From NCBI GenBank assembly GCA_021731085.1, contig JAKFYB010000001.1:101266-165265 (forward strand): DNA of 64,000 nt. Direction: 5' to 3'. A program made the position numbers and the translations under genes. Under the pieces are notes generated by a model. That model was given only the letters and a program-made list of their open reading frames with translations, ran no database searches and had not been told where the DNA came from. The stretch comes from Dehalococcoidia bacterium. Lineage in GTDB: Bacteria > Chloroflexota > Dehalococcoidia > DSTF01 > JACRBR01. Of this stretch, positions 1,594 through 18,773 are shown piece by piece (position 1 is the first letter of the stretch; each line of letters starts with the position of its first letter).

Positions 1594-4176
1594 ATGCGAA
1601 TCCGAATAACTGTGCTTGCCGCGATCGCCGGCGCGGCACTCGTAGCAGGTTTTGGCAGCGACCCGACCGACAAACGCGCGCAAGCGCAGGCGCCGACCGT
1701 CGAATACACGGGCGATGTGATCGTGAAATTCGACGCGGGCGTGACGCTTCCGGAAGTGGCGCAGGCGATCAGTGATGCAGATGGTTCGGCCGTGGCGACC
1801 AGCGCCGGTTCCGGCCTCGTGCTTGTCGAGCCTGCGGACGGCCAGTCACTTCAGGATGCGCTCAGTGAGTTGAAAGCGAACCCGGACGTAGCGTTCGCCG
1901 AGGCGGATACCGTCATGCGGGCCGACCTCATGCCCAACGATCCGCTTGCCAACAACGCGAGCTACAACTGGAGCTTGACCGAGATCGGCGCGCCCACCGC
2001 GTGGGACACGACGACGGGCAATGCGAACGTCATTGTGGCGGTGGTGGACACGGGCGTGGATGGCACGCCAGGCGACCTCATCGGCAAACTGACCTCCGGG
2101 GCGAACGCGGGCAAGAACTTCATCCAGATCGGCGTGAACACGTCCGTGAACGCGTCTGGTACAGCACGCATCCGGACGACGACAGCGCACCCGTATCGTT
2201 CGGGGGACTTCATCACGATCGCCGGCCACAGCGTCGCGGCCTACAACGGCTCGCGCGAGGTCTTCGTTCCCTCGACGAACATCAGCTCCGTCAGCAATTC
2301 AAGCGGTTCGGTGCTTGTCACAACATCCGCAGCCCACCAGCTTGCAACCGGCGATATGGTCAGCATCCGCAGCAACAGCGCGAACGTGACCTACCTTGCC
2401 GCGTCAACATCGATCAACCGCGAGTGGACGGTGACTGTCACGAGCACGACGCAGTTCACGCTGAACAGCGCGACCTACAACACTGCCGGCACCGGCGGGC
2501 AGGCGCGCGTCGCCTCCTACATGAATCTCGTGAGCGTGCCGTACACAAGCGCCGGGGCCGGTGGCACGGCGACCAACGACTCGCCGCGCGACGACCACAG
2601 CCACGGCACGTTCGTATCGGGCATCATCGCCGCGAATTCGAACAACGGTACAGGCATGGCGGGCGTCTGCTGGTCGTGCAAGATCATGCCGGTTAAGGTG
2701 CTGGACCACGAGGGCTATGGAAGTTCGTTCGGCGTCTCGCAAGGCATCGACTGGGCGGTCGCGAATGGCGCCGACGTTATCAACCTGAGCCTCGGCGGGG
2801 GCGGCACGGCAGGCTTGCAGACGTCGGTGAACAACGCATGGGCTGCCGGCGTGATCGTTGTCGCGGCGACGGGCAATGACAACGGGCCTGTGTCGTTCCC
2901 CGCTGCGTACTCCAACGCGATTGCCGTTGGCTCGACGCAACAAGGTGGCTCGCGGTCGTCATTCAGCAACTTCGGCCCGGAGATCGACATCGTCGCTCCC
3001 GGTAGCAGCGTGCTCGGCACATTGTGCCAGTGCAACGGTGGTGCAGGTGGCTACGGCACGGGCAGCGGCACGTCGTTCTCGACGCCATATGTCGCGGGTG
3101 CTGCGGCGCTCCTCATCGCGTCGGGGGTGACGGATAAGGCGCAGATCCGCTCGAAACTGCTGACGACGGCCACGGATCTTGGTACCGGCGGCTTCGACAA
3201 CCTCTATGGCAACGGTCGTCTCAACGTTGGCTCAGCGATCGCCACCCCAGGGACGGCCACACCAACCAACACTCCGACGAACACGGCAACGCCCACGAAC
3301 ACGGCCACGCCAACATCGACGCCGACGCCCGACACGACTGATCCTTCCGCGAACATCACAGCGCCTACGAACGGCGCCGTACTCGCGCTCGGCAATGTTG
3401 TGATAAACGCGTTTGCTGCGGATGGCGGCGGCGTGAACAAGGTTCGGTTCTGGGTGGACTCGACGTACCTGGGATTCGATAGTGCCGCTCCGTACACCAG
3501 GACCTGGGACGCGAGTAGTGCTGGACCTGGCAGCAGTCACGTAATCAAGATCGAAGCGATCGACAACTCGAACAACTCGACCATCCGAACCATCACGGTC
3601 ACGATGGCTGGTGCGGACGGAACGCCACCGACGGCGAGCATTACCTCGCCTGTGGCTGGTGCGAGCGTCTCCGGCATGGTGCCGGTCAACGCTACGGCCA
3701 GTGACGCCGGTGGCATCAACAAGGTGCGGTTCTGGGCGGGTTCGACCTATCTCGGCTTCGACGCAACAGCGCCGTACTCCAGGACGTGGGACTCTTCCCT
3801 CTCCGTATCGGGGCCAGTGACGTTGAAAATCGAAGCCATTGACAACGCGAACAACTCAACGTTCCGGACGATTGTAGTGACAAACGTGTCAACTGATGTG
3901 ACGCCGCCGACGGCGACGATCACTGTCCCTGCTGACGGCGCCACCGTCTCTGGCACGGTCGCGTTAACGGCAACGGGATCCGACGCCGGCGGTATCCAGA
4001 AGATTCGGTTCTGGGTCGACGCGACGTACCTTGGTTACGACTCTACGAGTCCGTACCAGCGTTCGTGGAACACAACTCTCGTGCCGAACGGCGTCTACGT
4101 CCTCAAGGCACAGGCTGTCGATCTGGCAAATAACGAAAGCACGATCGTCACCATCACCGTGACCGTGTCGAATTAG
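1594..4176 (+). CDS. Secreted S8 subtilisin-like serine protease with Thr/Pro linker and three C-terminal Ig-like repeats
   Basis: Catalytic triad motifs VVDTGVD, HGTFVSGIIAA and GTSFSTPYVAGAAALL. N-terminal signal peptide. About 185 aa inserted between the Asp and His motifs. GAGGGGG RBS upstream of the ATG. Confidence 0.85.
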   Translation: MRIRITVLAAIAGAALVAGFGSDPTDKRAQAQAPTVEYTGDVIVKFDAGVTLPEVAQAISDADGSAVATSAGSGLVLVEPADGQSLQDALSELKANPDVAFAEADTVMRADLMPNDPLANNASYNWSLTEIGAPTAWDTTTGNANVIVAVVDTGVDGTPGDLIGKLTSGANAGKNFIQIGVNTSVNASGTARIRTTTAHPYRSGDFITIAGHSVAAYNGSREVFVPSTNISSVSNSSGSVLVTTSAAHQLATGDMVSIRSNSANVTYLAASTSINREWTVTVTSTTQFTLNSATYNTAGTGGQARVASYMNLVSVPYTSAGAGGTATNDSPRDDHSHGTFVSGIIAANSNNGTGMAGVCWSCKIMPVKVLDHEGYGSSFGVSQGIDWAVANGADVINLSLGGGGTAGLQTSVNNAWAAGVIVVAATGNDNGPVSFPAAYSNAIAVGSTQQGGSRSSFSNFGPEIDIVAPGSSVLGTLCQCNGGAGGYGTGSGTSFSTPYVAGAAALLIASGVTDKAQIRSKLLTTATDLGTGGFDNLYGNGRLNVGSAIATPGTATPTNTPTNTATPTNTATPTSTPTPDTTDPSANITAPTNGAVLALGNVVINAFAADGGGVNKVRFWVDSTYLGFDSAAPYTRTWDASSAGPGSSHVIKIEAIDNSNNSTIRTITVTMAGADGTPPTASITSPVAGASVSGMVPVNATASDAGGINKVRFWAGSTYLGFDATAPYSRTWDSSLSVSGPVTLKIEAIDNANNSTFRTIVVTNVSTDVTPPTATITVPADGATVSGTVALTATGSDAGGIQKIRFWVDATYLGYDSTSPYQRSWNTTLVPNGVYVLKAQAVDLANNESTIVTITVTVSN
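3343..4173 (+). repeat. Three tandem ~280-nt coding repeats (~93-aa Ig-like modules) in the protease C-terminus
   Basis: The protein repeats the pattern TPPTA(T/S)IT.P..GA.VSG.V...A..SDAGGI.K(V/I)RFW...TYLG(F/Y)D...PY.R(T/S)W three times. Confidence 0.7.
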
Positions 4177-4243: not shown

Positions 4244-5371
4244 TCATGCGGCTCGAGCTGCTGTGCGTTCCTCGACATTTCCGGCAATCGCTTCGATATA
4301 GCGGTCGGCCGTGCGACCCCAACCGAAGTTGTCCAGCGTGTACGACCGCATGCGGGCCCCGGCGTCCACGATCGCCTGTCGCGGCAACGAGAGGAGACCG
4401 CGAATCTCAGCGGCCCACGCAGACGCGTCTAGCGGCGGAACAAGCACGCCGTTCCCTCCGTGATGGATCGCCTCGGGGATTCCGTCGAGATTCGAAGCCA
4501 GGACGGGAAGCCCGGAAGCGGAAGCCTCAAGTGCGACCAGGCCAAAGCCCTCCATATCGCCAGTCACAGGCACGTTTGGCATGACGAAGAGATCAGACGA
4601 GGCGTAAGCCGCCGCCAGAACCGAGTCGGTGACGCTTCCCAACATTCGAATGCGGTCATGCACACCCGCGATTGCAGCGGCTCGTTCGATTTCCCCCTTC
4701 ATCGCTCCGACACCGATGATGCAGTACGTGACATCCTCGGGAAGGCGTGGTAGCACATGCTCCACAAACCATGCGACGCCCTTGCGTTCGATCAGGCGAC
4801 CGACGGTCAGAACCACTCGCTCCCCTTCCCGCACTGCGGCCAGTTTGCTGAACTGTTGTCGCGCCTCCGTGGTTGGTTCAGGCAACGGGTTTATTCCCAA
4901 CGGGATCACTTCTGACATTGGATTGGGGCCAGTCCGCTCGTGCATCGCGGCCTCGGTTGCTGCACTGATCGGCATCGCCAAATCGATGCGGCGCAGGCCG
5001 TTGGTGATCACCCGCTGATAGATTTCGTTTTCGTACGTGACATCAAGACCGCACACCGACGCGGTCACTCGAATCCCGGTTGCGGCTTTGATCGCCGCGC
5101 CGACCGGTGCGAGCAACGCGTCTGCAAGATGGACGCTAGTAAAGCCGCCGGAGCGCACCTGACGGACTGCTGCTGTCGCCGCATACGGAAGAAACAGTGG
5201 CAGCGCCTTCTTTCCCCGATGGTTGATGAGGGAAACAATCTCGACGCGTTCCTCGAGGTGATTGTGGAGCTGCAACGCAAGGTTTTCCATCCCGCCCTGG
5301 GTCGGTGGATATGCGCGGGCAATGAACAGGATCTTCAAGTCTGTCGCGCGAACGGCACTAGCGAGACGCAT
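4244..5371 (-). CDS. Glycosyltransferase family 4 (GT-B)
   Basis: EGFGLVALEASASGLPV motif and overall GT4 architecture; 375 aa. Confidence 0.8.
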   Translation of the reverse strand: MRLASAVRATDLKILFIARAYPPTQGGMENLALQLHNHLEERVEIVSLINHRGKKALPLFLPYAATAAVRQVRSGGFTSVHLADALLAPVGAAIKAATGIRVTASVCGLDVTYENEIYQRVITNGLRRIDLAMPISAATEAAMHERTGPNPMSEVIPLGINPLPEPTTEARQQFSKLAAVREGERVVLTVGRLIERKGVAWFVEHVLPRLPEDVTYCIIGVGAMKGEIERAAAIAGVHDRIRMLGSVTDSVLAAAYASSDLFVMPNVPVTGDMEGFGLVALEASASGLPVLASNLDGIPEAIHHGGNGVLVPPLDASAWAAEIRGLLSLPRQAIVDAGARMRSYTLDNFGWGRTADRYIEAIAGNVEERTAARAA

Positions 5372-7091
5372 TGGGCTCCTCCTCCAGTGTCTTCACCTCG
5401 TATAGGCGAAGGCCGTGTTCTATGTCTCGACCCCGTAGCGCCACCTTTTCATTGGTTGTCGTCATTTGGACCAGCTCGAAGTATTCGGACGGCGTGTTTA
5501 GTTGTAGAAACGACCGCATGCCATCTCTCGGCATCGCATCGACGTAAGCCCCGGGTGGATCCGAGATCAGCACGTAATCGATCCCGTATGCATTCAAAAT
5601 CTCATTCGCGCGGCGCGGCTCGCCTGTTGTGATCGCGTCGACCACCCACGCATTCCCATAGAACGTCACCCACGCCACATTGCGTTCCCATGTAAGCAGC
5701 GCCGTGTATGTCCTCGGTGTAAGGATTATGGTGTCGGGGGGAGTGTTGGCGTTAACCCACGCCCCCATCTCCGCGTATTCGGCGCCTCGAAAGTTCCGCA
5801 AATCGCGATCGCCCGTACGCAAGTACATATCCACCTCACGTGAGCTGTGAGGCGCGAGCCCGTAGAGTGCAGCGGCGATCAACGCAGCCGCCGTTGCGGC
5901 GCCAACAATGCGCAAGGCGTTGAGTTCTTCCCGAAGCCAACGGGCGCCAGCGGCGACTATCGCGTACAGGCCGAATGCGAACGCCGTGTGGAAGAGGATC
6001 TGCGAAGTGATGACGTACCGCGGATTCCCGTGAAGGAACACGAGCATCGCCGCGTCGATGGCGACTTGTGCCACGATCCAGCGCGCGAAAAAGCGGCTCG
6101 CACCTCCGCGGCCATGAAGGTACGCCACGCCTACCATCGATGTACCGATGACGAGCGCGGACATCCACTCGGGTGTCCAGCTCTCGGTGTACACCAGCGC
6201 GGTGCGGTATTTGTCTAGCCAGACGGTCGGCGATCCGTCCGGCTTGGTGATGCTGGCTATATAGGCATTTGCAGTCGGATCGATAGCCAGTGATGGGCTC
6301 ATGCCTGGCAGCCAGTTGTCCGCGTAGCCAATCGCCCCCGTGCGCATGGCAAGAAACAACAGTGCGGGGACTGAGGTCGCGAGGAGGCCCGCTACGAGCG
6401 TTGTGGTCCACGGCCATTCATGGAGGATCAGGCGTGGACGCCACGCGGCACGCTCTGCGATCCCAAACGCCACCACGAGGCTGAGCGCGAGGATGACGAA
6501 GAGGGCGTTCTGCCGCGTTGCAAGCCCCAATCCCAACAAGAGGCCGCTCAGGATCGCATAGCGTGGACGGCGCGTGTCGAATGCTACATAGGCCATCCAT
6601 GCGCCCGCGAACAAGAACGCCAGCATGACCGGTTCCATATACGGGCTTCGGTAGGGCCCTAAGACCGCAGGCGAAGACAGAAACACCAGCGAGGCAGCCG
6701 CGGCGACAATCGTTGGCGTTCCGCGTTTCGTAAACATGAACACTGAGCAAGCAACGACGCCTGCCGAAATCGCATTCAAGGCGATTACGCCTGCCAGCCC
6801 CGCAATCGTATACGCGGCTGCTCCGAGCACGTGGTACAGGGGTGGGTAGGCATAAGGGAACATCGCGACGATCTCCCCGCCTTCCTCCACGCGCGCCGGC
6901 GTGTGGGGCAGCTCAGTCGGTATGGAGCCACTCGCGGCGATGTCCTTGATAAGCCGGAGGTGCAGCGCTGGATCGCCATCGGGCGTCTCCGTGAAGTTTG
7001 CGCGAAGCAGCACGTACACAGCGGCGATGATCGCAACTCCGATGAGGATGGCGTACGCTCCGAACCACGTCGTCAGCCTCGTCCGCGTCAT
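5358..7091 (-). CDS. GT-C membrane glycosyltransferase (PMT_2/ArnT-like, GT39/GT83 family)
   Basis: At least ten predicted TM helices, the YPPLYH loop motif characteristic of ArnT/PMT-like enzymes, and a C-terminal soluble domain. Confidence 0.6.
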   Translation of the reverse strand: MTRTRLTTWFGAYAILIGVAIIAAVYVLLRANFTETPDGDPALHLRLIKDIAASGSIPTELPHTPARVEEGGEIVAMFPYAYPPLYHVLGAAAYTIAGLAGVIALNAISAGVVACSVFMFTKRGTPTIVAAAASLVFLSSPAVLGPYRSPYMEPVMLAFLFAGAWMAYVAFDTRRPRYAILSGLLLGLGLATRQNALFVILALSLVVAFGIAERAAWRPRLILHEWPWTTTLVAGLLATSVPALLFLAMRTGAIGYADNWLPGMSPSLAIDPTANAYIASITKPDGSPTVWLDKYRTALVYTESWTPEWMSALVIGTSMVGVAYLHGRGGASRFFARWIVAQVAIDAAMLVFLHGNPRYVITSQILFHTAFAFGLYAIVAAGARWLREELNALRIVGAATAAALIAAALYGLAPHSSREVDMYLRTGDRDLRNFRGAEYAEMGAWVNANTPPDTIILTPRTYTALLTWERNVAWVTFYGNAWVVDAITTGEPRRANEILNAYGIDYVLISDPPGAYVDAMPRDGMRSFLQLNTPSEYFELVQMTTTNEKVALRGRDIEHGLRLYEVKTLEEEPNASR

Positions 7092-8143
7092 GCGGACCTC
7101 CGTTCGGTCACGGCCGTGACGGGTGGCGCGCTAGCTGGTGACGGTGGGACGGTCTGCAGCGCTGCCTTGGTGCGTACCGCGTGCCACGCGACGTGTGTTC
7201 CAGCGACCACATCGATGATGAACGCGAGCACGAATAGCGCCAGGTCTGCGATCACCATCAGCAGGCGTAGCATGATGGCCGCCAGCGCGGCCACTTCCAC
7301 CGTAAAACGCGAGGCCAACAACGCTGTCAGCGCGCCGTCTCGCACGCCAAGTCCCGCTGGCACGAGTACGACGAGGATTCCAGCGACGCCCGCGAGCGAC
7401 AGCGCTCCTGTCGCGAGGAAGATGTCATCGACGGAGGCGCCGCCTACCGCGCGCAGGATGATCCACAGCGCAACGCCGTTGATTGCCTGGTTCGTGGCGA
7501 CGAAGAACGATGCGGCCATGAGCGCGCACGTAGGTGGTAGTGCGCCATCGGGCAGCGGCTCACGTCGCAGAATGCGCAGCGATGCATCGACGATGCGACG
7601 GAGGACGGACGGGTGCAACGCAGCAAGCGCGACCGAAGGCAGGAGTGCCAGCACGATGTATCGCCCGCCGCCGGCCGTCAGCCCCTGCGCGGCAACGATC
7701 ATCGTTGCACCGACCACCGTAGAGACCAGGATCTCAAGTACGTTCTGGACGGCAGTCGTCACGACAAGCGGTCGCGTGCCGTAGCCGATGCGTGTACCGA
7801 GGTACACCTTGCCGGCGAAGAACGGCAGGGTGCCAGGCACATAGCGGCCGAGCCACGAGTAAGAGAACGCCAGCATCAGACGACCGCGGCGGTGCGGCTC
7901 GGCCGCCGCTACGCTTTCGATGAGCACGATCCAGGCCGCGCCGAGGCAGAGGGTCGCCAGCATGAATAGACCGGTTGCCAGTGCAAACCACTCCGCATCG
8001 GCGACGAGGGCTGCTGTGTCCACGGATCCCGCGCCGTCGACGAGGCTGCGAGACGCGAACCACAGCATCGCTCCGAGCAGGGCGATGGCGATGGTGGCGC
8101 GCATGCCGTGCGCCCGAATCCAGCTTGAACGTGCGAGGTGCAT
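7088..8143 (-). CDS. Flippase-like membrane protein (lysylphosphatidylglycerol-synthase TM-region family)
   Basis: Polytopic membrane protein resembling the MprF TM domain. The long ORF-track N-terminus looks spurious; a start at MHLARSS (8143) is proposed. Confidence 0.5.
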   Translation of the reverse strand: MHLARSSWIRAHGMRATIAIALLGAMLWFASRSLVDGAGSVDTAALVADAEWFALATGLFMLATLCLGAAWIVLIESVAAAEPHRRGRLMLAFSYSWLGRYVPGTLPFFAGKVYLGTRIGYGTRPLVVTTAVQNVLEILVSTVVGATMIVAAQGLTAGGGRYIVLALLPSVALAALHPSVLRRIVDASLRILRREPLPDGALPPTCALMAASFFVATNQAINGVALWIILRAVGGASVDDIFLATGALSLAGVAGILVVLVPAGLGVRDGALTALLASRFTVEVAALAAIMLRLLMVIADLALFVLAFIIDVVAGTHVAWHAVRTKAALQTVPPSPASAPPVTAVTERRSA

Positions 8144-8492
8144 CGGCAATCCAGTCCGGGGTCCGGTCGCCCTGAAGCGGATCCGGCAGCAATCGGGCCG
8201 GGCGTCTTGCCCGGATCTCTGCTTCTCGCGCCCGCGTCTCTCGCGGCTTCGGCCCAGTTTCAGGGTGTGACCTCGATGAGTCAGTAGGGGGAGACCTGAG
8301 ACAGCCGGGTATGAACCCCTGCTTCCAGAATCGACCGCTGGCGATGAATCTGGATCACAGACGTTTAACAAACCGAGGCGTCTGAACCCCTCAAGTTGGG
8401 TTCGAGGTGGGCCGAACATCAGACGAGACCAGAATGGGGTTACGGGTTCGGTGGGTTGCCGTTCGACGTGCCTAAGCTAACAGGAGGACTGG

Positions 8493-8849
8493 ATGTTCAA
8501 GACAAAAGGAGCGATGTTCGGCATTGCTGCGGCGCTCGTCGTGGCCGGCCTGACCTTCGCCAGCATGGCAGTGACCACGACTTCAGGCGCGGGCACGGAC
8601 GAGGTAGAGAACACGCCGGTGGCCGCGCCGCCGCAGGCTCCGATCGAGGCGCCCGCGGACACGACGGTCGACCCGACTGGTGGCCAGCAGGGCGCTGGCA
8701 CGGGCCCTGGCGGCCTTCCCGACGCGGGCTACGGCCCGGCGGAGAACAGCGGCACGAACACGATGCTGCTTGGCCTGGCAGGAATTGTCCTGATGGCTGG
8801 TAGCGGACTGATGTTCGCGGCGAGCAAGGCCAGCGACCGAAGGTCCTAG
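8493..8849 (+). CDS. Small secreted Pro/Thr-rich protein with C-terminal cell-wall-sorting-like signal (LPDAG + TM + basic tail)
   Basis: N-terminal signal peptide and a Pro/Ala/Thr-rich body. The C-terminus reads LPDAG, a 12-aa spacer, a hydrophobic helix, then SKASDRRS. Confidence 0.45.
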   Translation: MFKTKGAMFGIAAALVVAGLTFASMAVTTTSGAGTDEVENTPVAAPPQAPIEAPADTTVDPTGGQQGAGTGPGGLPDAGYGPAENSGTNTMLLGLAGIVLMAGSGLMFAASKASDRRS

Positions 8850-9120
8850 TCTCGCGCAAACGAAAATCGAAGAGTTTGAAGGAGGCCCTGCACTGCCGCA
8901 GGGCCTCCTTCTCTATTTTCGCGCGAGTCTGACGCCGATTGACGCGCAGGTCTCGCCGCATGGTGCGATGGGGGGCGCTCTCGTAGGGTCGTTTGTGGTG
9001 TGGTTGGGGATTCGCCTGATGGTGATGGGTACGGGCGCGCGGGATGATGGCCGCATGATGGGAACCGGCGCAATCGCGTCATCTGTTGCTGTGCGCCATC
9101 CGCGCGTCCGCTGGCGCGCA

Positions 9121-11091
9121 ATGTCCTTGCCACTCGCGCTCGTCGCGGTCGCAGCGCTTTTGGCCCCGCTGTTCCTCGCCGCACCGTCGCATCTCACATC
9201 CGACGAATCGCTGTATCTGGCCGAGGCGTACAACCTCGCCGAGGGCCACGGCCTGACGTATCCCTCGGGCGAGGCAATCGTCCATCGTGCGCCGCTGTAC
9301 CCAGCCTTGCTGGCGCCAGCCGTGGCGCTTGGCGGTCCTGATGCTGCATATGGCGTCGCGAAGCTAGTTATCGCGATCAACACTGTGCTCGTGATGGCAC
9401 TGGCGTGGCGGCTCGGCGGACAAGTTGCGGGCTGGGCTGCTGGCCTCGCGGCAGCAGCATCCGCATATCTCTCGGAACTTGGCACGACGCTCTATCTCGA
9501 TCCCATGCAGTGCACGTTCTTGCTCCTGAGCTTGATCGCGCTCCATTCCGCCGTCGAGAAGCGTCGCGCGCATTGGTGGGCCGCCGCGGGATTGTCGGCT
9601 GGGCTCGCCTTCCTGGTAAAAGAATCCGCGATCCAGTGGGCACCGCTCGCCGTCGTCGTCGTGCTAACGTTGCCCTCACAACGCGACCGTATCGGTGTGC
9701 GAGGAGCTGCAATATTCACCGCTGTCTTCGTCGCGGCGATCGCGCCGTGGTGGGTGTGGGTGTATGGCCATACCGGCGATCTGTTTCTGCTCGGCGATCC
9801 GCAGCGAGTCGCCATCGAAGCCATCGCGGCGCTGGCGCTTGCACTTGGAGCTGCCTTTGTCCTGCGACGAAAGACGCTGCCCGTATCGTGGGCGATGCCT
9901 GCAGCGACCGTGATTGTCGCCGGCTGGGGCGTATTCCTCCTGTACGGACTGACCGTGTTCTCCAGCTATCCGGCTCCGAATGACTACCTCACGTCAATCC
10001 CGCGCTACCTCCTGCAGGTCGCCCCGCAGGTGCAGCCATACTTTCCGATCGTGGCCGCATGGGCATGGGTATCGTGGCGTGCGGCCCAGGGCGACGAGCG
10101 TGCGAGGCTGCTCGTCGTCGCGGCGGCGTTGTTCGTGCCTTTTGCACTGTTCGCCGCGAACCGCTGGCTGCAGTTGCGTGATGCGCTTCCGCTCGTGTAC
10201 CTGTCCTACGTCGCGCTCGGCCTCGCTGCGGCGCAGTTGTGGAACAGCGTGCGCTCCCGCGTGGAAGGAACCAACGCGCTCCCTATCGTTCTCGCAGCAA
10301 CCGGCATCGCGACTGTGGCGTTCGTCACCCACGAAGCAATGGTCTTCGACCGCACCACGGACCGTGAGGCGATCGCGCGCGATCAGGCCGGATCATGGGA
10401 CAGTCCGTACACCCGCGAAGTGGCCGCTTGGATGACGGCGAATATTCCCGCGGGGTCGGAGGTCATGACGAGTCGCCAGTACTTCTCTAGCTTGCACGTC
10501 GAGACAGAGGCCCGGTTCGAGGTCCGGCAACTGCCCACCGTGCGCGTTGCTTTCGATCCGAACTCCGATGCATTCGCGCAGGCGCGGTCGAATCTCTTCC
10601 GCTGGGAAGACGACGAGCTTCGCGAGACGCAGCCAGGTGATACGTGGCTGCATCTGCAGCAGTTTCCGAACAAGGGCTATTGGGTCGGCCTGAGCGAAAA
10701 GGAATTGTTGGCCTTCATCGCCGCGAACAACATCGAGTATGTCGTGCTCACCGGCGATGACATCGCCTTCAGTTCGTCCGCATACGCCTGGTACTTCACA
10801 GCCAACCCGGCGTTTGCGTTGTTGGGAACGGTGGAGGGCACTGGCGGCGATCGCATGTTCGCGTACGCAGTCGATCGCACACGGTTAACGTCGCTCTCAC
10901 ACTCAACGTCGATACACCCGCGCAGCATGAGCGAACTGCAGAGCCTGCTCGGCCTCGATGTGAGCGAGATCTCAGGCGCCCTCGCCACTCCACTTCACGT
11001 CACCGATGAGGATGGTGGCTTGAGCCAACGAGAGCTCGAGGCCGCGCTCGCGGGTACGGATCTCGGCATGAAGGACGAGACAGCGCCATGA
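9121..11091 (+). CDS. GT-C membrane glycosyltransferase (PMT_2/ArnT-like) with C-terminal soluble domain
   Basis: First loop carries TSDESLYLAEAYNLAEGHG (DE motif) and HRAPLYPALL (PPL-like motif). Multiple TM helices. Start chosen at MSLPLALVAV; the ORF track begins at 8968. Confidence 0.6.
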   Translation: MSLPLALVAVAALLAPLFLAAPSHLTSDESLYLAEAYNLAEGHGLTYPSGEAIVHRAPLYPALLAPAVALGGPDAAYGVAKLVIAINTVLVMALAWRLGGQVAGWAAGLAAAASAYLSELGTTLYLDPMQCTFLLLSLIALHSAVEKRRAHWWAAAGLSAGLAFLVKESAIQWAPLAVVVVLTLPSQRDRIGVRGAAIFTAVFVAAIAPWWVWVYGHTGDLFLLGDPQRVAIEAIAALALALGAAFVLRRKTLPVSWAMPAATVIVAGWGVFLLYGLTVFSSYPAPNDYLTSIPRYLLQVAPQVQPYFPIVAAWAWVSWRAAQGDERARLLVVAAALFVPFALFAANRWLQLRDALPLVYLSYVALGLAAAQLWNSVRSRVEGTNALPIVLAATGIATVAFVTHEAMVFDRTTDREAIARDQAGSWDSPYTREVAAWMTANIPAGSEVMTSRQYFSSLHVETEARFEVRQLPTVRVAFDPNSDAFAQARSNLFRWEDDELRETQPGDTWLHLQQFPNKGYWVGLSEKELLAFIAANNIEYVVLTGDDIAFSSSAYAWYFTANPAFALLGTVEGTGGDRMFAYAVDRTRLTSLSHSTSIHPRSMSELQSLLGLDVSEISGALATPLHVTDEDGGLSQRELEAALAGTDLGMKDETAP

Positions 11092-11191
11092 GCATTACGT
11101 GCAGACTGACGGCCACAACAGGGATTTCACCCACGTCGATCGATGAGGGAACTGCCGATATGTTCCAGAACAGACGGAAGGGAGTCCGCGC

Positions 11192-12226
11192 GTGAAACTG
11201 ATTGTCACTATCCCCGCGCTTAACGAAGAGCCGACGATCGCCGGCGTCATCCGCGAGATCCCCCGCCGGATACCCGGGTTCGATTCCGTCGAAGTGCTCG
11301 TCATCGACGACGGCTCGACGGACGCGACGGTGCAGCAGGCATTGCGGGCAGGCGCGGACTACGTCGTCTCAAACCGCGTCACGCGTGGCCTGGCGACCAG
11401 TTTCAAGACGGCCTTGCAGGAAGCGCTCGCGCGGGGCGCTGACATCATCGTCAACACCGACGCCGACAACCACTACGACCAGTCGCGCATTCCCGAACTC
11501 GTCGCACCGCTGCTCACCAACGAGGCCGATATAACCATCGGTAGCCGCCTCATCGACGAATTGCCGATGAAGGCCGCCAACAAGTACGGCAACAAGGTTG
11601 CAAACTACATCATGCAGCACGCGCTCGGTATCCCGGGCGTCGATGTGTCCACCGGCTTCCGTGGCTACACAGCTGAAGCGGCGATGAAGCTCAACGTCCT
11701 CTCGGACCACACGTATACACACGAGACGCTGATCAATGCGCTCGACCAGCGCATGAGGATCGTCAACGTGCCCATCGCGGCTCGCCATGTCGAGCGCCCC
11801 TCGCGCTTGATCAAGAGCATCGCCAGCCATGTGGTGCGCGCCGGCGGCGTCATCCTGCGAAGTTTCCTGCTGTACAGGCCGATGCAGGTCTACGGCACGC
11901 TCGGCGCACTGTTCTTGCTTGCGGGCGCGATTCCCTTTGCGCGCTTCGCAGTGCTCGTTGCGATCGGACAGAGCGAAGGCCACGTACAGTCGCTCGTCGT
12001 CGGCACCGCGCTGACGTTCTTCGGCGGTCAGATGATCATTACAGGCATGCTTGCCACGGCCATCTCGTGGAATCGTCGCATGATCGAGGACGTCCTCTTC
12101 CGCATGAAGTCGGAACCAATCAGCACAACGCGCGAGCGACCACGCCTGCGCATCGTACGGACACCAGGTGACGAAGAGTATGGGAGCACAACAGCAAATG
12201 GCAGCACCTCACGCAATGCCGCATAG
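11192..12226 (+). CDS. GT2 polyprenol-phosphate sugar synthase (DPM1/GtrB-like) with C-terminal TM anchor
   Basis: KLIVTIPALNEE...VLVIDDGSTD GT2 signature, DxD region, and two C-terminal TM helices. Confidence 0.8.
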   Translation: MKLIVTIPALNEEPTIAGVIREIPRRIPGFDSVEVLVIDDGSTDATVQQALRAGADYVVSNRVTRGLATSFKTALQEALARGADIIVNTDADNHYDQSRIPELVAPLLTNEADITIGSRLIDELPMKAANKYGNKVANYIMQHALGIPGVDVSTGFRGYTAEAAMKLNVLSDHTYTHETLINALDQRMRIVNVPIAARHVERPSRLIKSIASHVVRAGGVILRSFLLYRPMQVYGTLGALFLLAGAIPFARFAVLVAIGQSEGHVQSLVVGTALTFFGGQMIITGMLATAISWNRRMIEDVLFRMKSEPISTTRERPRLRIVRTPGDEEYGSTTANGSTSRNAA

Positions 12227-13076
12227 GACAGCAGCACCAATCGGTATCATCGGGGCGGGCGTCGTTGGCGGCGCCCTCCAGTCGTATCTGGAGGCGCGAG
12301 GCGCTGATGTGCGTCTCTACGACCCCCCGAAGGGCCACGCGTCGATGAGCGCGCTCAATGACGCCGAGATCGTCTTCGTCTGCGTCCCGACGCCGTATGC
12401 CCCGGGCCGGGGATTCGATGATTCGCATTTGCTATCTGCAGTATCGACTTTGGACGGCGGACGCGTCGTCATCATTAAGTCCACCGTGCTCCCGGGTACC
12501 ACACAGATGCTGCAGGAGCGAATGCCGCAGCACCGTTTCCTCTTCAACCCGGAGTTCCTGCGGGAAGCGACAGCCTACGACGACTTCATCAATCCCGACC
12601 GCCAGATCGTCGGCTGCACGTATGCAAGTCTCGGTGATGCTCATCGCATCATGGAGATACTGCCCCGCGCGCCGTTCGAGCGCATCTGCCCATCCAGCGA
12701 CGCCGAAATGGCGAAATACGTCGCGAATGCATTTCTTGCCGTGAAGGTCAGCTATGCCAACGAGGTGTACGACCTCTGCGACCGGCTGCACATCGATTAC
12801 GACTCCGTGAAGGACATCGTGGCCGCGGACGAACGCATCGGCGAGTCCCACATGAACGTGCTCGACAGTGGCTATCGGGGCTACGGCGGCAAGTGCCTAC
12901 CGAAGGACAGCAAGGCATTGCTCGATCTCGCCCGCACGCTCGGCGTCGACCTCCGCGTGCTCCGCGCAGCAGATCGCGCAAATGCGTTGTTGGTCGGCGA
13001 AGAACTCGGTGCCCGCATCACGCCGATCAAGCCCATGGCGATCGCGAAGGTCGAGGCCGAAGAGGTCGCCGCGTAA
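12198..13076 (+). CDS. UDP-glucose/GDP-mannose dehydrogenase family protein (short form)
   Basis: N-terminal GIIGAGVVGG Rossmann motif and the catalytic-Cys motif GGKCLPKD. The start overlaps the upstream gene and is uncertain (12168, 12198 or 12216). Confidence 0.6.
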   Translation: MAAPHAMPHRTAAPIGIIGAGVVGGALQSYLEARGADVRLYDPPKGHASMSALNDAEIVFVCVPTPYAPGRGFDDSHLLSAVSTLDGGRVVIIKSTVLPGTTQMLQERMPQHRFLFNPEFLREATAYDDFINPDRQIVGCTYASLGDAHRIMEILPRAPFERICPSSDAEMAKYVANAFLAVKVSYANEVYDLCDRLHIDYDSVKDIVAADERIGESHMNVLDSGYRGYGGKCLPKDSKALLDLARTLGVDLRVLRAADRANALLVGEELGARITPIKPMAIAKVEAEEVAA

Positions 13077-13243: not shown

Positions 13244-13720
13244 ATGGCGGCGCCGTTTGGACATGGGTTCGTGGGGATGGCGCTCGCGCGGCGCATGGGT
13301 GTGAAGTCACCTCTCGGACTGGCGGCGGCCTTCTTCGCAGCGAGCATCCCTGATGTGGATGTCCCGATCGGCGCGATCATCGGCAAGGACATCCACCGGC
13401 AGGGCACGCACACGCCGAACTTCGCGTTGACGGCAGGCATGCTTGCTGGCATGACGGGCGTGCTCGCGGCCGAGAGCGTTGAAGGCGAACGTGACCTCAT
13501 CCTCGACGCGATGACGGGCGCCGTGATCGTCGGATCCCACCTGGTGCTGGACAAGGCGCCGTACTTCCCGGACATCCCCTTCGGCCCGAAGCTGATAGGT
13601 ATGCCGGTGGCGAACTGGGTCGTGGATGCCATCCAGTGGGGCATCGTTGCCTACTTGATCTGGCCCAAGGGCGAAGTTGATGCGCTCGGTGAACCTACGC
13701 CGGAGCATGTCGTCGCCTAG
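13244..13720 (+). CDS. Membrane-bound metal-dependent hydrolase (YdjM/DUF457-like)
   Basis: Small polytopic protein with conserved His/Asp positions as in the YdjM family. Confidence 0.45.
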   Translation: MAAPFGHGFVGMALARRMGVKSPLGLAAAFFAASIPDVDVPIGAIIGKDIHRQGTHTPNFALTAGMLAGMTGVLAAESVEGERDLILDAMTGAVIVGSHLVLDKAPYFPDIPFGPKLIGMPVANWVVDAIQWGIVAYLIWPKGEVDALGEPTPEHVVA

Positions 13721-13901: not shown

Positions 13902-14504
13902 ATGCACCGTATTTCCGCGCCACTGCGCGGCCGCGTGATCGCGCTGGCCGTTTCGATCTCCATCGTAATCACCGCTGCTGGCTGTGGCTCGATCGGGTTC
14001 AACCAGGCGCCAGCGAATGGGTATGTTTGGGGCTCGCAACAGCCGTTGCGCATTGCCGTCATCAACCAAGCCGGGCCGGAGTGGTCTTCGTCGCTACAGT
14101 CGTCTCTGCGGCAGTACGAGGAGGGTGCTGGCGGAAACCTGCAATTCCAGAACACGCCCGACGGCGCGAATATCGTCATCACGGTGAAGACATACACCGA
14201 CACAGCACCGCCGGACCTCGAAGGCTACGACTTTCCGCAGGGCGCAGGTGGCTTCGCGACTGTGTACGACGCGCAGGGTCTCGCGTGCAACTACCCACCG
14301 TCGACGCTGCCGCTCAACTGTTCCGGCGAGATCACCCGCACGGAGATTTGGCTGAACCTCGCTATCCCCGCGGGAAGTGACATAGAAGCGCGGCGCGGCC
14401 GACTGCTGCTCCACGAACTCGGGCACGCGATGGGGCTGACACGCCACGCGCCGACGCTCGACATCGGCATGCTCGAACAACGTTACGGCTGGGAGCACCA
14501 GTAG
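13902..14504 (+). CDS. Small secreted metzincin-like zinc metalloprotease
   Basis: Signal peptide plus the HELGHAMGLTRH motif (HExxHxxGxxH). Confidence 0.6.
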   Translation: MHRISAPLRGRVIALAVSISIVITAAGCGSIGFNQAPANGYVWGSQQPLRIAVINQAGPEWSSSLQSSLRQYEEGAGGNLQFQNTPDGANIVITVKTYTDTAPPDLEGYDFPQGAGGFATVYDAQGLACNYPPSTLPLNCSGEITRTEIWLNLAIPAGSDIEARRGRLLLHELGHAMGLTRHAPTLDIGMLEQRYGWEHQ

Positions 14505-15255: not shown

Positions 15256-16443
15256 CTAGACCATCGGTGTCCCAGGATCGAGGCCGAGCATCACGCGCCC
15301 CGCCAGCTCGTAGTTCGGCAGGGCATGCATGATGTGTTGCGTCGCGGCGTGCGCGTCGCGTAGGCAGCGCTGCAGCACGCTCTTCTCGTACAGCGATGTG
15401 CCGCCGCCGAGCGTGTAGGCGATGTCAGTCGCGCGAGCGCCCTCGAACGCGGCGTGTGCGCACGCCATCCGCAGCATCGCGCGATCATGCATCGTAATCT
15501 CGACGTCGCGCACGGCCTTGTCCCACAGTTCGTCCGTAAGCTCAAACAACCAAGCACGTGCCGACCGCAGGATGGCCTCCGCCTTCGCGATCTCGACCTG
15601 CGTGATCGCCTTGTCACGAAGCTTGTTGAACGAGCCCATCGGCGTCTTCGCAGAAGCCAGCGCAACCAGCTCGTCGATCGCCCGTCGCGCGATGCCCAAC
15701 GGGATCGGCGCGATTGTCAGTGCGAGGAAGCCCAGCGTCGGGAAACGATAGTTCGGGCCGTCGACGACAGCGTTGCCGCCGTACATCTTCAGCATCCGGC
15801 CCTCGGGCACGAAGACGTCCTTCACTTCGACGTCGCGGCTGCCAGTTCCACGCAGGCCTGAGACGTGCCATGTGTCGATGATCTCGACATCCTCGACTGG
15901 AAAGACCGCTGTGCGAAAGTCCGGCATGCCGTTATTGAGCGCAGGTGAGTCGCCATCCATGACGAACGTGCCGCCGACGATGATCGAACAGTGCGTGCTG
16001 CCGCTCCCGAACGGCCACCGTCCGCTGACGCGATAGCCACCTTCGACCGGCGTCGCGCGTCCGTTCGGCGCCTGTGCGCCGCCTGATACGGCGCGTGCCG
16101 TATACATCGAGCGCGCGATGTCCTCCGGCAAGAACGCCGACACAACGGCCGTACCGTTGCCGATGCCTACCACCCAGCCGACCGATGCATCGTGGATCGA
16201 GAGTTCCTCGAGTACGCGGACCAGGTTCGGGATGGCGTCTTCGAGGCCGCCGTACACCTTGGGCGTGAAGAGATCGAACATGCGGTGCTGGTGCAGGATG
16301 TCGACGAGCGCTGGCGGGCACTGGCGCGTCTGCTCGGCTTCGTCCGCGTACTGGCGAATCGTCGGGCCGAGTTCGCGTGCTGTTGCAAGCATGTCGGTCG
16401 TCGTGGGTTGGGAAGCTGTCGCAGTCATTGTCGGCTCTCGCAT
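15256..16443 (-). CDS. Acyl-CoA dehydrogenase family protein (type-2, flavin-dependent monooxygenase-like)
   Basis: ACAD fold signatures across the 395-aa length. Confidence 0.65.
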   Translation of the reverse strand: MREPTMTATASQPTTTDMLATARELGPTIRQYADEAEQTRQCPPALVDILHQHRMFDLFTPKVYGGLEDAIPNLVRVLEELSIHDASVGWVVGIGNGTAVVSAFLPEDIARSMYTARAVSGGAQAPNGRATPVEGGYRVSGRWPFGSGSTHCSIIVGGTFVMDGDSPALNNGMPDFRTAVFPVEDVEIIDTWHVSGLRGTGSRDVEVKDVFVPEGRMLKMYGGNAVVDGPNYRFPTLGFLALTIAPIPLGIARRAIDELVALASAKTPMGSFNKLRDKAITQVEIAKAEAILRSARAWLFELTDELWDKAVRDVEITMHDRAMLRMACAHAAFEGARATDIAYTLGGGTSLYEKSVLQRCLRDAHAATQHIMHALPNYELAGRVMLGLDPGTPMV

Positions 16444-16562
16444 GCTGTTGGATGTGCTGTGCCGCGAGTATATCGCCGCGAGGCGCCAACTGGCCTGCGC
16501 TCAAGCCTGAGAAACGGATTAAAAGCGCTGCTGTGTAGGGGCGGACGCCGTTCCGTTCTCCA

Positions 16563-17672
16563 TTAGTCGACCGTGATCTTGTGGACTTTGCCGTCGAGCC
16601 CGAGCCAGTACAGAACGCCGTCCGGGCCGACGTCCAGGTCCACCGGTTGGGATAGTCCTGACATGAAGGGCACAGCGGCATACGTAGGAGCATCGAGGCG
16701 CATGATGAATCCACCATACGCGTCCGCGAAGAAGTAGTCTCCATCGAACTCGCTGGGGAAATTGTCGGCCCGGTAGAACACGGCGCCGGTTATCGCGCGT
16801 CCGGCGCTATGGTCGTACTGGTGAATCGGATCGATGCGGAATCCGTTGCAAGCTCCTTCGCAGCCGGGCCACCCGTAGTTACCGCCCTTGAAGACGAGAT
16901 TGACCTCTTCCCAATCGCTGTTTCCAACGTCATTCACGAACAACGCGCCATTCGGAGGATCAAAAGCGAAACTGAAGGGGTTTCGAAGCCCCATCGCCCA
17001 TATGCTGCGGTACTTTCCCGTCGCGAACAGGCTGAACGGATTGTCCTCGGGGACGGTCCCATCGGGGTTGACGCGCAGGATTTTCCCGTGAGTGCTCGTT
17101 AATGACTGGGCAGTGGCAGCGTCAGTGGTGTCGCCGGCTCCGATGTACAGCATCCCATCCCGGCCGAACTTGATCTCACCACCGTTGTGCTGGAGCGTTG
17201 AGCCGAGATTGCCGTCGAGCTCGAACACGACGGTTTCGCTGCCGGGGATCGACACGTCGCCGTCCGCGGTCAGGCGACTGACGCGTCCATGCGGCGGGGT
17301 GCCGGGGACGGTGTAGTGGACGTAGACGTAGGGGCTGGTGGGAAATGCTGGATCGAGCGTGATTCCGATCAGCCCTGCCTCCTGAGACGAACTCTCGACG
17401 GTCAGCACGGCAAACGGATTCGGGAGACTCTTCCCATCCTTGACCACGCTGATGATGCCGGGACGATGCGCGATGAAGATGCGACCGTCGCTGGCGACCA
17501 CGAAGGAGGAGGTAGGCACGCCCGTGTCGACGATCTCACTACTGGTGAAGCTGGCCGAGGGGCAATCCTGCCCCTCGCGATCGACGCAGTTGTCGGCGCC
17601 GTCGCCAGAGCCGTCGCCGGAACCTAGTCCGCAGCTCACGAGGAGAGGCAGGAACACCACAAGCAGCAACAT
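16563..17672 (-). CDS. PQQ-dependent soluble sugar (glucose/sorbosone) dehydrogenase, lipoprotein
   Basis: Lipobox LLVSCGL plus the GLRNPFSFAFDP and GGNYGWP beta-propeller motifs. Confidence 0.75.
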   Translation of the reverse strand: MLLLVVFLPLLVSCGLGSGDGSGDGADNCVDREGQDCPSASFTSSEIVDTGVPTSSFVVASDGRIFIAHRPGIISVVKDGKSLPNPFAVLTVESSSQEAGLIGITLDPAFPTSPYVYVHYTVPGTPPHGRVSRLTADGDVSIPGSETVVFELDGNLGSTLQHNGGEIKFGRDGMLYIGAGDTTDAATAQSLTSTHGKILRVNPDGTVPEDNPFSLFATGKYRSIWAMGLRNPFSFAFDPPNGALFVNDVGNSDWEEVNLVFKGGNYGWPGCEGACNGFRIDPIHQYDHSAGRAITGAVFYRADNFPSEFDGDYFFADAYGGFIMRLDAPTYAAVPFMSGLSQPVDLDVGPDGVLYWLGLDGKVHKITVD

Positions 17673-17833
17673 CGCTACTTTGTTAATTCAGCACCTCGCT
17701 TCGTGACTTGCCTGCTCGCGTGACGCCCGTAGCGGCTTCCGCGGCATCTTAGCATCGTCCGGTGCAAACACAGGAGCGTCGGCCGCCAGAGTGTGCGGCC
17801 GGCGCCCGCTGTGCCACGGGAATCCATCCAGTT

Positions 17834-18721
17834 CTACGGCCGGACGCCGATGAGCTTCGCGACCTTGATCGCGTTGAACAGCGCGAGGGCGACGTACCAC
17901 TTCACGCGGGTGCGCGTAGCGTCCTTCGTCTCGAGGCTGCCGATCGTCTCGACCTGCAGGCCGCCGGGGGACGTCAAGCCGGCGACCGCGCCTTCGCCGA
18001 TCTGCAGCGCGTAGATGGTCGAGCAGTCGCTGCTGCTGCCGACGGTCTTCGCATCGCCGATGTAGTCGCTGATGGCGACGGGGATGCCGTCGTAGAACTG
18101 CACCATCTGGCCGAAGTCGTTGCGGTCGGCCTGCAGCAGGCTGCCCGTCGCGCGGGCGAGCGTGTTCAGCGAGCGTCGGGTGCGCTTGCTCATGAGGAGC
18201 ATGGCCGGCGGGCCGCCCTTCACTGCGTCCACCAACTCATCGAGCTTGGCGAGCGTGAGCGACGCGCCGTTTGCGCCCAGCGTCAGCGACTGGCCGCCGA
18301 CGGTGAGCTTATCGATGCCGTCGAAGGACTTCGTGTCGACGGCTGAGTCGCCGTTGAGGAACGTGTCCTCGAACTTCTGCTGCACGGCCTTCGCGCGGAG
18401 GCGAATGACGGCCGCCTGCAGGTCCTGCACGTTATTGCGCGTCGTCAGCAGGTAGTTGTCGATGTCGGCGTCGCCGCCAATGATCTTGAGCGGCGTCGTG
18501 ATCTGCGTGAACGTCGGCGTGCCCTCCGTCCATGTGTCGCCGACGTCGAAGAACGTTGCGGCGGGGTTCACGTTCTCGCGGTTGTAGGTGAGGCCGTTGC
18601 CGGTGATCTCGACGAAGGGCAGCATCTGGAGGATGGGCGACTCCTGCACGATCGTCTCGATGACGCCCTGGAGGATGATGTCGTTCGAGAGCTTCGCGCC
18701 CTCGGCCAGTGTGAGTGCCAA
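17834..18721 (-). CDS. HK97-family phage major capsid protein-like (no delta domain), TTG start
   Basis: Matches the Phage_capsid pattern: N-terminal VIETIVQESPILQMLPFVEITGNGLTY, FLNGDSAVDTKSFDGI (LNGDG motif), YDGIPVAISDYIGD (LLGRPV-like) and a C-terminal AIKVAKL. AAGGA RBS 8 nt upstream of the TTG. Confidence 0.65.
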   Translation of the reverse strand: MALTLAEGAKLSNDIILQGVIETIVQESPILQMLPFVEITGNGLTYNRENVNPAATFFDVGDTWTEGTPTFTQITTPLKIIGGDADIDNYLLTTRNNVQDLQAAVIRLRAKAVQQKFEDTFLNGDSAVDTKSFDGIDKLTVGGQSLTLGANGASLTLAKLDELVDAVKGGPPAMLLMSKRTRRSLNTLARATGSLLQADRNDFGQMVQFYDGIPVAISDYIGDAKTVGSSSDCSTIYALQIGEGAVAGLTSPGGLQVETIGSLETKDATRTRVKWYVALALFNAIKVAKLIGVRP

Positions 18722-18735
18722 TGTTGGTATCCTTG

Positions 18736-18759: not shown

Positions 18760-18773
18760 TCGTGAGCCACGTA

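Follow-up and report, generated by a model that had tools for sequence, protein, structure and literature searches.

A glycosyltransferase of family 2 (GT2) combined with one or more GT-C enzymes is found in several described systems. The GtrB/GtrA/GtrV system of O-antigen and the CsbB/GtcA/YfhO system of teichoic acid consist of a GT2 with C-terminal transmembrane (TM) helices, a small flippase and a GT-C acting outside the cell. The Arn pathway (Ugd, ArnA-D, ArnE/F, ArnT) and the Rgt pathway of Rhizobium, in which RgtE and RgtA-D use dodecaprenyl-phosphate galacturonic acid, combine a dehydrogenase, an ArnC-like GT2 and a GT-C of the ArnT fold. In actinobacterial protein O-mannosylation (Ppm1 and the GT39 enzyme Pmt), whose typical acceptors are Pro/Thr-rich secreted proteins, and in lipomannan/lipoarabinomannan (LM/LAM) synthesis (PimA/B, Ppm1, PimE/MptA/MptB), a family 4 glycosyltransferase (GT4) and a GT2 come together with several GT-Cs that carry DE and HxxPL-type motifs in loop 1. 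Here we describe a gene set that resembles each of these systems in part, at positions 4,244 to 13,076 of a 64,000-nucleotide stretch (the window) of contig JAKFYB010000001.1 from a Dehalococcoidia bacterium (GCA_021731085.1). It encodes a GT4, two GT-Cs (GT-C#1 and GT-C#2), a GT2, a flippase-like LPG_synthase_TM protein, a short protein related to UDP-glucose dehydrogenases (UGDHs) and a small surface protein. We consider it likely that this is a conserved cell-envelope glycosylation set of the Dehalococcoidia, which depends on a polyprenol-phosphate sugar and on GT-C enzymes and follows the three-component principle; the transferred sugar is possibly a uronic acid.

The set departs from all the systems compared in four ways: its flippase candidate, its two unclassified GT-C families, its two-domain dehydrogenase and its dedicated small protein. 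Relative to the O-antigen and teichoic acid systems, the flippase candidate is an LPG_synthase_TM protein instead of GtrA, there are two uncharacterised GT-Cs, and a GT4, a dehydrogenase and a dedicated small surface protein are added. Unlike in the Arn and Rgt pathways, ArnA, ArnB and ArnD are absent, GT-C#2 reaches 17.7 bits with the ArnT model against a cut-off of 567, and the dehydrogenase lacks the C-terminal domain; the host, a member of the monoderm Chloroflexota, has no lipid A. Differences from the actinobacterial systems include the lack of any match to PMT (PF02366), PMT_4TMC or MIR in the GT-Cs, a GT-C C-terminal domain that is OST/ArnT-like and not PMT-like (OST, oligosaccharyltransferase), and the absence of anything pointing to GDP-mannose or mannose. 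The Agl system of Haloferax volcanii (AglJ, AglM, AglP, AglB, AglS, AglR) is alike in that AglJ is the best match of the GT2, the dehydrogenase matches AglM, methyltransferase genes occur in related loci and, of two GT-Cs, one has AglB as its best structural match. Nevertheless, the host here is a bacterium, the WWDYG motif is missing, every score falls well short of its equivalog cut-off and the flippase candidate comes from another family. By these tests the proteins of the set belong neither to GT39, GT83 or GT66 nor to AglJ, ArnC or PpgS.

To compare gene content, we examined the neighbourhoods of GT-C#2 homologs of 36-64% identity (loci labelled L001-L089 are comparison neighbourhoods, and all those compared for the gene set come from the single class Dehalococcoidia). 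The same families occur together in at least 10 related loci, among them L001, L002, L010 and L084-L089; at protein identities of 36-64%, and of 36-81% for the GT-Cs, they remain grouped despite repeated changes of order and strand. In L085 all seven genes form one co-directional operon of overlapping or abutting frames, in the order small gene, GT-C#2, GT2, short dehydrogenase, GT-C#1, LPG_synthase_TM and GT4, with the gene of an S8 subtilase (described below) convergent to it. Since the genes recur in changing order, and in one case as an operon read in one direction, we regard their grouping as functional and not a matter of chance, and the original prediction of a coherent pathway is borne out to this extent. 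The other arrangements are small gene, GT-C#2, GT2, dehydrogenase, LPG_synthase_TM, GT4, two methyltransferases and a 629-aa membrane protein, again with a convergent S8 gene (L088); GT2, dehydrogenase, GT-C#2, LPG_synthase_TM, GT4, methyltransferase and a 582-aa membrane protein, with a divergent small gene (L089); the same families on the opposite strand (L086); and dehydrogenase, GT-C#2, LPG_synthase_TM, GT-C#1 and GT4 (L010). In L001 and L087 the right arm is kept, and the left arm consists of GT4, methyltransferase, GT4, a Wzx flippase, a 671-691-aa membrane protein and GT4.

From this comparison, the set has a core of four components (GT-C#2, GT2, the small protein and the short dehydrogenase), which are present in the window and in L001, L002, L084, L085, L087, L088 and L089; the left arm seen in the window is one module among several that can replace one another. 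Homologs of GT-C#1 and GT-C#2 share contigs. The alternative left arms bring either another large membrane protein with methyltransferases (L086, L088, L089) or Wzx with extra GT4s (L001, L087). The second large membrane protein occurs in three types, unrelated or barely related to each other. Methyltransferase genes are found in L001, L002, L084 and L086-L089. Large multi-spanning proteins with sub-threshold PMT_2 similarity occupy the GT-C#1 position in L001 (5959-8034, minus strand) and L087 (4969-6984, minus strand), and proteins that match no Pfam family and carry PDSGT behind TM1 occupy it in L086 (12029-13624, minus strand), L088 (17197-19086, plus strand) and L089 (14408-16156, plus strand). 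An hhalign comparison of the 691-aa L001 protein with both GT-C families was not significant. Both replacement families are probably additional uncharacterised GT-C families.

Within the window, the genes are arranged as two divergent units and not as one transcription unit. The leftward unit comprises LPG_synthase_TM, GT-C#1 and GT4, with overlaps of 4 nt and 14 nt; rightwards, the small gene with its own hairpin is followed by GT-C#2, GT2 and the dehydrogenase. A sigma-70 consensus promoter was not found, which carries little weight in this phylum. The region has a G+C content of 59-66%, and its open reading frames (ORFs) are long and, save for the overlaps of a few nucleotides given here, non-overlapping. 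All genes named in the original prediction (GT4, two GT-Cs, a polyprenol-phosphate GT2, a flippase-like and a UGDH-like protein) are indeed intact ORFs at or near the positions it gave, each with family support. As for the source, the named bins with GT-C#2 homologs are all Chloroflexota/Dehalococcoidia metagenome bins, and the top of the list of dehydrogenase matches in the genome collection consists of metagenome-assembled genomes of Dehalococcoidia; the window is accordingly attributed to an uncultured member of this class. Neither paralogs nor further glycosylation genes were found elsewhere in the 64-kb window.

GT-C#2 (8968..11091, plus strand; 707 aa), the conserved core enzyme, is predicted to have about 13 TM helices followed by a 230-aa C-terminal extracytoplasmic domain, an architecture like that of ArnT and OST. 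An alignment of 40 homologs shows D79, E80, H106, R107, D178, K218, E219, R404 and D405 to be invariant, together with several motifs of the C-terminal domain. Two of the invariant stretches, TSDESLY (D79, E80), in extracytoplasmic loop 1, and HRAPLYP, correspond to the DE and PPLY-type loop motifs already recognised in the original prediction. Seven Arg precede TM1 in the Arg-rich cytoplasmic N-terminus, and the TSDESLY loop that follows TM1 has one basic and five acidic residues; by the positive-inside rule, the DE loop thus faces outward. GT-C#1 (5358..7091, minus strand; 577 aa), the exchangeable component, has an invariant Asp40 after TM1 in the motif PDGDPALHL, a YPPLYH motif and a C-terminal extracytoplasmic alpha/beta domain. 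BLAST aligned the two proteins at 33% identity over 81 residues only. Their family profiles align with a probability of 94% and an E value of 1.4e-7, Asp40 falling on Asp79, and on this profile comparison the two families are judged homologous, with matching catalytic-loop Asp residues.

Family assignment of the GT-Cs was approached through fold comparison because searches of the Protein Data Bank (PDB) with the sequence of GT-C#2 alone and with its 40-member profile gave nothing meaningful. Both proteins show the GT-C_A helix arrangement of ArnT, PMT and STT3 with an acidic residue in the first extracytoplasmic loop. With Pfam PMT_2 (PF13231, gathering threshold 26.1 bits), GT-C#2 scores 53.0 bits and GT-C#1 26.0 bits, a borderline value just under the threshold; some GT-C#1 homologs have a precomputed match, and the L085 ortholog scores only 22.6 bits. 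No match to PF02366, PF16192 (PMT_4TMC) or MIR was obtained for either protein at E <= 0.01, and the similarity to PMT is therefore at the level of fold only. The ArnT equivalog model NF009784 gives GT-C#2 an E value of 0.0011, at the score stated above, and does not match GT-C#1. Consequently, the PMT/ArnT-like labels first given to both proteins had to be dropped, as they fail the sequence tests for PMT/GT39 and for ArnT/GT83. Membership in the OSTs (GT66) was also considered, since the C-terminal extracytoplasmic domain has the central core fold of that family and AglB is the best structural match of one of the two proteins, and was rejected on the absence of the defining WWDYG motif. At its position in the 40 GT-C#2 homologs only W477 is invariant, preceded by S, D, N, G or A and followed by D, N, E, G, H or R; no counterpart of the motif is seen in GT-C#1. 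GT-C#1 and GT-C#2 thus represent two uncharacterised GT-C_A families near PMT_2, and from fold and motifs we infer that they are transferases.

Downstream of GT-C#2, the GT2 gene (11192..12226, plus strand) encodes a GT-A domain (Glycos_transf_2, PF00535, 71 bits) with two C-terminal TM helices at about aa 226-250 and 266-291. Residues 2-291 align with the ArnC structures 9bhc, 8vxh and 9hwj (E 2e-8 to 7e-8), and the N-terminal part matches the dolichol-phosphate mannose synthase (DPMS) of Pyrococcus (5mlz). The GT2 therefore has the GtrB/ArnC/DPMS-type layout, with a GT-A domain, C-terminal TM helices and full-length homology to a solved member. Its best NCBIfam matches are AglJ (6.8e-31), Dol-P-hexose transferase (DPhHxTase, 1e-15) and PpgS (4.9e-14), all under the equivalog cut-offs (107.7 bits against 325, 57.3 against 375 and 52.3 against 370, respectively), as is ArnC (24.2 against 529). 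Sugar specificity is therefore not assignable from these scores. By family, the protein is classed as a putative polyprenol-phosphate glycosyltransferase.

The leftward unit begins with the flippase candidate, a protein of the LPG_synthase_TM family (PF03706), that of the MprF flippase domain (7088..8143, minus strand), whose gene overlaps that of GT-C#1 by 4 nt. The ORF is open to 8419 (443 aa) and its conserved part starts near M93; at full length (7088-8419) it has no Pfam match, and trimmed to M93 it matches PF03706 with an E value of 1e-7 and 32.2 bits over profile positions 3-299 of 302, the gathering score being 33.4 bits. The L085 ortholog exceeds this score with 39.7 bits, and precomputed PF03706 matches exist in L085, L086, L088 and L089. 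TIGR00374 gave only 20.1 and 10.3 bits on orthologs, the PDB sequence search with this protein returned no match, and a literature search on flippase roles of PF03706 proteins turned up nothing relevant. The presence of Wzx in loci where the LPG_synthase_TM gene is missing weakly supports a flippase role. The last gene of the unit encodes the GT4 (4244..5371, minus strand), an enzyme of a family that is cytoplasmic and uses nucleotide-sugar donors; it overlaps GT-C#1 by 14 nt. Its GT-B/GT4 nature is clear from Glyco_trans_1_4 (PF13692, 118 bits) and Glycos_transf_1 (PF00534, 103 bits), and it reaches no NCBIfam equivalog cut-off. Close orthologs are present in L001, L085 and L087 (8e-110 to 3e-123), and weaker matches (1e-22 to 1e-64) in L010, L084, L086, L088 and L089.

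The dehydrogenase gene (12216..13076, plus strand; about 286 aa) starts 11 nt before the GT2 stop, and the two genes are therefore regarded as translationally coupled. The protein consists of a Rossmann N-domain (UDPG_MGDP_dh_N, PF03721, 69 bits) and a central domain (UDPG_MGDP_dh, PF00984, 95 bits), and a 25-member alignment shows invariant NPEFLRE, AEMAKYxANxFLAxKV (K167/N171) and GYGGKCLPKD motifs, which hold the catalytic Glu, Lys, Asn, Cys and Asp of UGDHs. No match to the C-terminal UDP/GDP-binding domain (PF03720) was found; the protein ends about 30 aa past the central domain, and no downstream ORF encodes the missing part. The description as UGDH-like therefore stands for the two domains present, in a short form that differs from the standard enzyme. 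With the general NDP-sugar dehydrogenase model TIGR03026 it scores 164.6 bits (3.1e-48), below the cut-off of 189.8, and AglM comes second (2e-35). PDB alignments cover only about positions 81-315 of UGDHs of 400-480 aa, about 40 residues of the N-domain being missing. That the gene is a truncated pseudogene was rejected, as length and motifs are kept in hundreds of homologs: the 120 best are 268-304 aa long at 62-100% identity, the short form is kept in 74 of 83 loci examined (204-330 aa), and the alignment shows a constant length of about 285 aa with a conserved C-terminal ERAA tail.

Short dehydrogenases of this kind extend beyond the Chloroflexota, with ORFs of 273-310 aa in Patescibacteria (about 50% identity) and in Poseidoniales and Woesearchaeota (34-40%). 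The family, of about 274 aa there, is widespread in Poseidoniales (MGII), Woesearchaeota and Patescibacteria (L019-L083, from archaea and the candidate phyla radiation); we found no curated family and no relevant paper for it. In Poseidoniales, a glucose-1-phosphate nucleotidylyltransferase gene lies upstream and a gene for a GtrA-like protein downstream. The order in Patescibacteria is GT2, dehydrogenase and a short-chain dehydrogenase/reductase (SDR), the latter resembling dTDP-glucose 4,6-dehydratase, GalE and UDP-xylose synthase/ArnA, in all cases below the equivalog cut-offs. These contexts favour a nucleotide-sugar 6-dehydrogenase. As the only sugar-nucleotide enzyme of the set is a 6-dehydrogenase, a uronic acid is suggested, if anything, and nothing indicates mannose, so that the protein O-mannosylation originally proposed finds no support.

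The small gene (8493..8849, plus strand; 118 aa) is preceded by a Shine-Dalgarno sequence, AGGAGG, read from the sequence at 8482..8487 (plus strand), 5 nt ahead of its ATG. From N- to C-terminus, the protein shows a basic N-terminus, a signal peptide (MFKTKG...ASMA), the motifs TTxGAxTD, PPxxPxE and LPxAGxG, a hydrophobic helix and a basic tail. Residues K3, K5, G6, T30, G32, T35, D36, P46, P47, P50, E52, L75, P76, A78, G79 and G81 are invariant in five orthologs. The invariant LPxAGxG, with about 20 hydrophobic residues and then R/K behind it, has the tripartite layout of sortase-type sorting signals, with Ala replacing the Thr of LPXTG and a longer spacer of about 12 aa. Basal orders of the Dehalococcoidia have recently been shown to have peptidoglycan and an S-layer (PMC10284905). 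The exposed stretch is of low complexity and rich in Ala, Gly, Thr and Pro, with T and P at 15% each; overall, the composition is A 18%, G 16%, T 11% and P 8%. The earlier description as a Pro/Thr-rich secreted protein is thus right as to the signal peptide, and has to be changed to a mainly Ala/Gly-rich protein that is probably anchored to membrane or wall by LPxAG, TM helix and basic tail. It matches no Pfam or NCBIfam family, including the NCBIfam LPXTG models, and among 1.8 billion proteins its own family yields 31 cluster representatives, of which 27 measure 119-146 aa.

Between the small gene and GT-C#2, a terminator scan located a hairpin (8878..8911, plus strand), a perfect 14-bp GC-rich stem followed by the T-rich tail TCTATTTTCG, which may act as a terminator or attenuator. 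Searches with a hidden Markov model found the small protein near GT-C#2 in 8 of 10 loci; in six of them its gene directly precedes that of GT-C#2. In all seven loci checked in which the small gene comes before GT-C#2 in the same orientation, a hairpin follows its 3' end; the equivalents in L001, L002, L084, L085, L087 and L088 have 11-14 bp, their structure being kept and their sequence not. A short, strongly translated structural gene, a hairpin and then enzyme genes is the order known from pilin and peptide-precursor genes. By analogy, the arrangement would fit an abundant substrate encoded upstream of its modifying enzymes, and the small protein is a reasonable candidate acceptor or scaffold. 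The original prediction had called it an obvious candidate acceptor; it remains a candidate through its place near GT-C#2, and is at least equalled in this respect by a second protein.

This second candidate is a secreted S8 subtilase (1594..4176, plus strand) with a fervidolysin-type prodomain, a Pro/Thr linker and three Big_7 repeats (Peptidase_S8 1.2e-52, Big_7 1.4e-43). The linker, at aa 554-593, reads TATPTNTPTNTATPTNTATPTSTPTP and is present in 4 of 7 orthologs. The window protein has 20 N-x-S/T sequons against 12.5+/-3.1 in shuffled sequences, an enrichment that is inconsistent among orthologs. An S8 ortholog adjoins the set or the short dehydrogenase in L001, L002, L004, L005, L014, L084, L085, L087, L088 and L089, and as an acceptor candidate the protease is at least as good as the small protein.

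According to the mechanism that we consider likely, the short UGDH-like enzyme would oxidise a nucleotide-hexose to a nucleotide-hexuronic acid, and the membrane-anchored GT2, acting on the cytoplasmic side, would charge polyprenol phosphate with a sugar taken from a nucleotide donor. The LPG_synthase_TM protein may then flip the lipid-linked sugar, by analogy with the MprF flippase domain, after which GT-C#2, as the core enzyme, and GT-C#1, as the exchangeable one, would transfer it outside, each using the invariant Asp of its first extracytoplasmic loop. The glycan or glycolipid that serves as acceptor would be assembled or tailored by the cytoplasmic GT4 and by the methyltransferases of related loci. 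The acceptor is most likely a surface protein encoded beside the enzymes, in the first place the small LPxAG protein and in the second the S8 protease with its Pro/Thr linker; a lipoglycan or wall polysaccharide in place of a protein is almost as likely.

Several observations weigh against parts of this mechanism. All UGDHs characterised so far bind the nucleotide through a domain that is missing from this dehydrogenase, and the oxidation of a nucleotide-hexose may for this reason be wrong. L002 has a GDP-mannose 4,6-dehydratase nearby, which is not a uronate-modifying enzyme, and in L004 and L014 the dehydrogenase occurs with the S8, YdjM and lipoprotein genes (the latter two described below) and with no GT2 or GT-C within 10 kb. 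The window copy of the PF03706 protein lies just under the Pfam threshold, and a role in flipping a polyprenol-phosphate sugar is assigned to it by analogy. The acceptor is assigned solely from the adjacency and order of the genes, L086 has no small protein, and a relaxed TLxTC-type pattern revealed no plausible sortase in the window, its matches falling in unannotated or overlapping frames.

Among the other explanations, the assembly of a lipoglycan or wall polysaccharide is a possibility to be taken seriously. A glycolipid primer made in the cytoplasm by the GT4 would be flipped and then extended or decorated by the GT-Cs with polyprenol-phosphate sugars, the small protein and the protease being unrelated neighbours. 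Comparable schemes are actinobacterial LM/LAM synthesis, whose blueprint is the same content of GT4, GT2, two GT-Cs and flippase, and teichoic acid glycosylation. Like the serotype modules of polysaccharides, several components are moreover swapped from locus to locus, namely the second GT-C, the GT4s, the methyltransferases and the kind of flippase (LPG_synthase_TM or Wzx), and L087 carries an inositol-1-phosphate synthase gene and two Lip_A_acyltrans genes 4 kb away. However, the small gene lies tightly and repeatedly upstream of GT-C#2 with its conserved hairpin, and no priming phosphoglycosyltransferase, polymerase or export genes are found within the set of the window. An OST-like system on the Haloferax AglJ/AglM/AglP/AglB/AglS scheme appears quite improbable; in it an AglJ-like GT2 would start a glycan, GT4 and methyltransferases would extend it and the dehydrogenase would supply hexuronic acids, one GT-C transferring the flipped, lipid-linked glycan en bloc to protein and the other adding the final sugar from a separate polyprenol-phosphate sugar. 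It draws on the AglJ and AglM matches of GT2 and dehydrogenase (AglM coming behind TIGR03026), on the methyltransferase genes of seven loci and on the somewhat raised sequon number of the window S8 protease. This enrichment is not consistent among orthologs, all NCBIfam scores lie far below the equivalog cut-offs, and the OST-defining WWDYG is absent, W477 alone being invariant in GT-C#2 and nothing comparable existing in GT-C#1.

A bolder variant, which we regard as unlikely, would have OST-like GT-Cs, with an AglB-type core domain and no WWDYG, glycosylate the abundant LPxAG mini-protein to give a proteoglycan-like envelope component; in this case the short UGDH would act without a nucleotide-binding domain and might oxidise the polyprenol-phosphate hexose made by the GT2. 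Such lipid-linked oxidation was demoted relative to the oxidation of a nucleotide sugar because in other phyla the enzyme sits among genes for nucleotidylyltransferases and nucleotide-sugar SDRs. That the genes are neighbours merely by the shared ancestry of close genomes, with no cooperation among them, is scarcely credible. It is true that all comparison loci come from one class and that the YdjM, lipoprotein and S8 genes, which have no evident connection with glycosylation, are kept as neighbours too; yet order and strand have been rearranged repeatedly while the set was kept at such divergent protein identities, start and stop codons overlap, and the functions are complementary.

Two further genes follow the dehydrogenase as conserved neighbours. 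The first encodes a YdjM-family membrane hydrolase (13244..13720, plus strand; PF04307, 8.9e-9), which is adjacent in L001, L002, L004, L014, L087, L088 and L089. The second encodes a predicted 200-aa lipoprotein (..ITAAGC; 13902..14504, plus strand) with a HELGH zinc-protease-type motif and a weak DUF3152 match, with orthologs in L001, L002, L004, L014, L085, L088 and L089. In most related loci both genes are found together with those of the S8 protease and the short dehydrogenase, including L004 and L014, which lack GT2 and GT-C. In L087, an SDR gene, the inositol-1-phosphate synthase gene and the two Lip_A_acyltrans genes (15971-20043) lie about 4 kb downstream of the set and hint at phosphatidylinositol-based glycolipids in this lineage of Dehalococcoidia.

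Farther along the window, a lone gene for a phage major capsid protein was found at 17834-18721 (minus strand), with 205 bits for the NCBIfam gp7/epsilon15-type model (cut-off 75) and 1.9e-14 for Phage_capsid. Just upstream of it, a gene for a 176-aa protein (18848-19378, minus strand) has a weak match to an SMC-related family (23 bits against 300). The pair is flanked by metabolic genes, coding for a pyrroloquinoline quinone-dependent glucose/sorbosone dehydrogenase and a DUF4037 protein, and could be either a prophage remnant or a domesticated capsid-like compartment. In addition, the gene at 21646-23796 (minus strand) encodes a 716-aa fusion of a thiamine-phosphate synthase (TMP-TENI, 3.5e-60) with four SnoaL_2/NTF2-like domains, an unusual architecture.

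The general scheme of the glycosylation set is textbook knowledge and will not surprise a glycobiologist; its new parts are the two GT-C families, the shortened dehydrogenase and the tiny, probably surface-anchored protein. Of wider interest are the UGDH-like family of about 280 aa that lacks a nucleotide-binding domain and also occurs in Patescibacteria, Poseidoniales and Woesearchaeota, and the PF03706 proteins as possible flippases of polyprenol-phosphate sugars. Dehalococcoidia are abundant in soils, aquifers and oceans, and the chemistry of their envelope is almost unknown. The gene set, which is compact and conserved and includes a clear candidate acceptor, offers a direct handle on how their surface is decorated.

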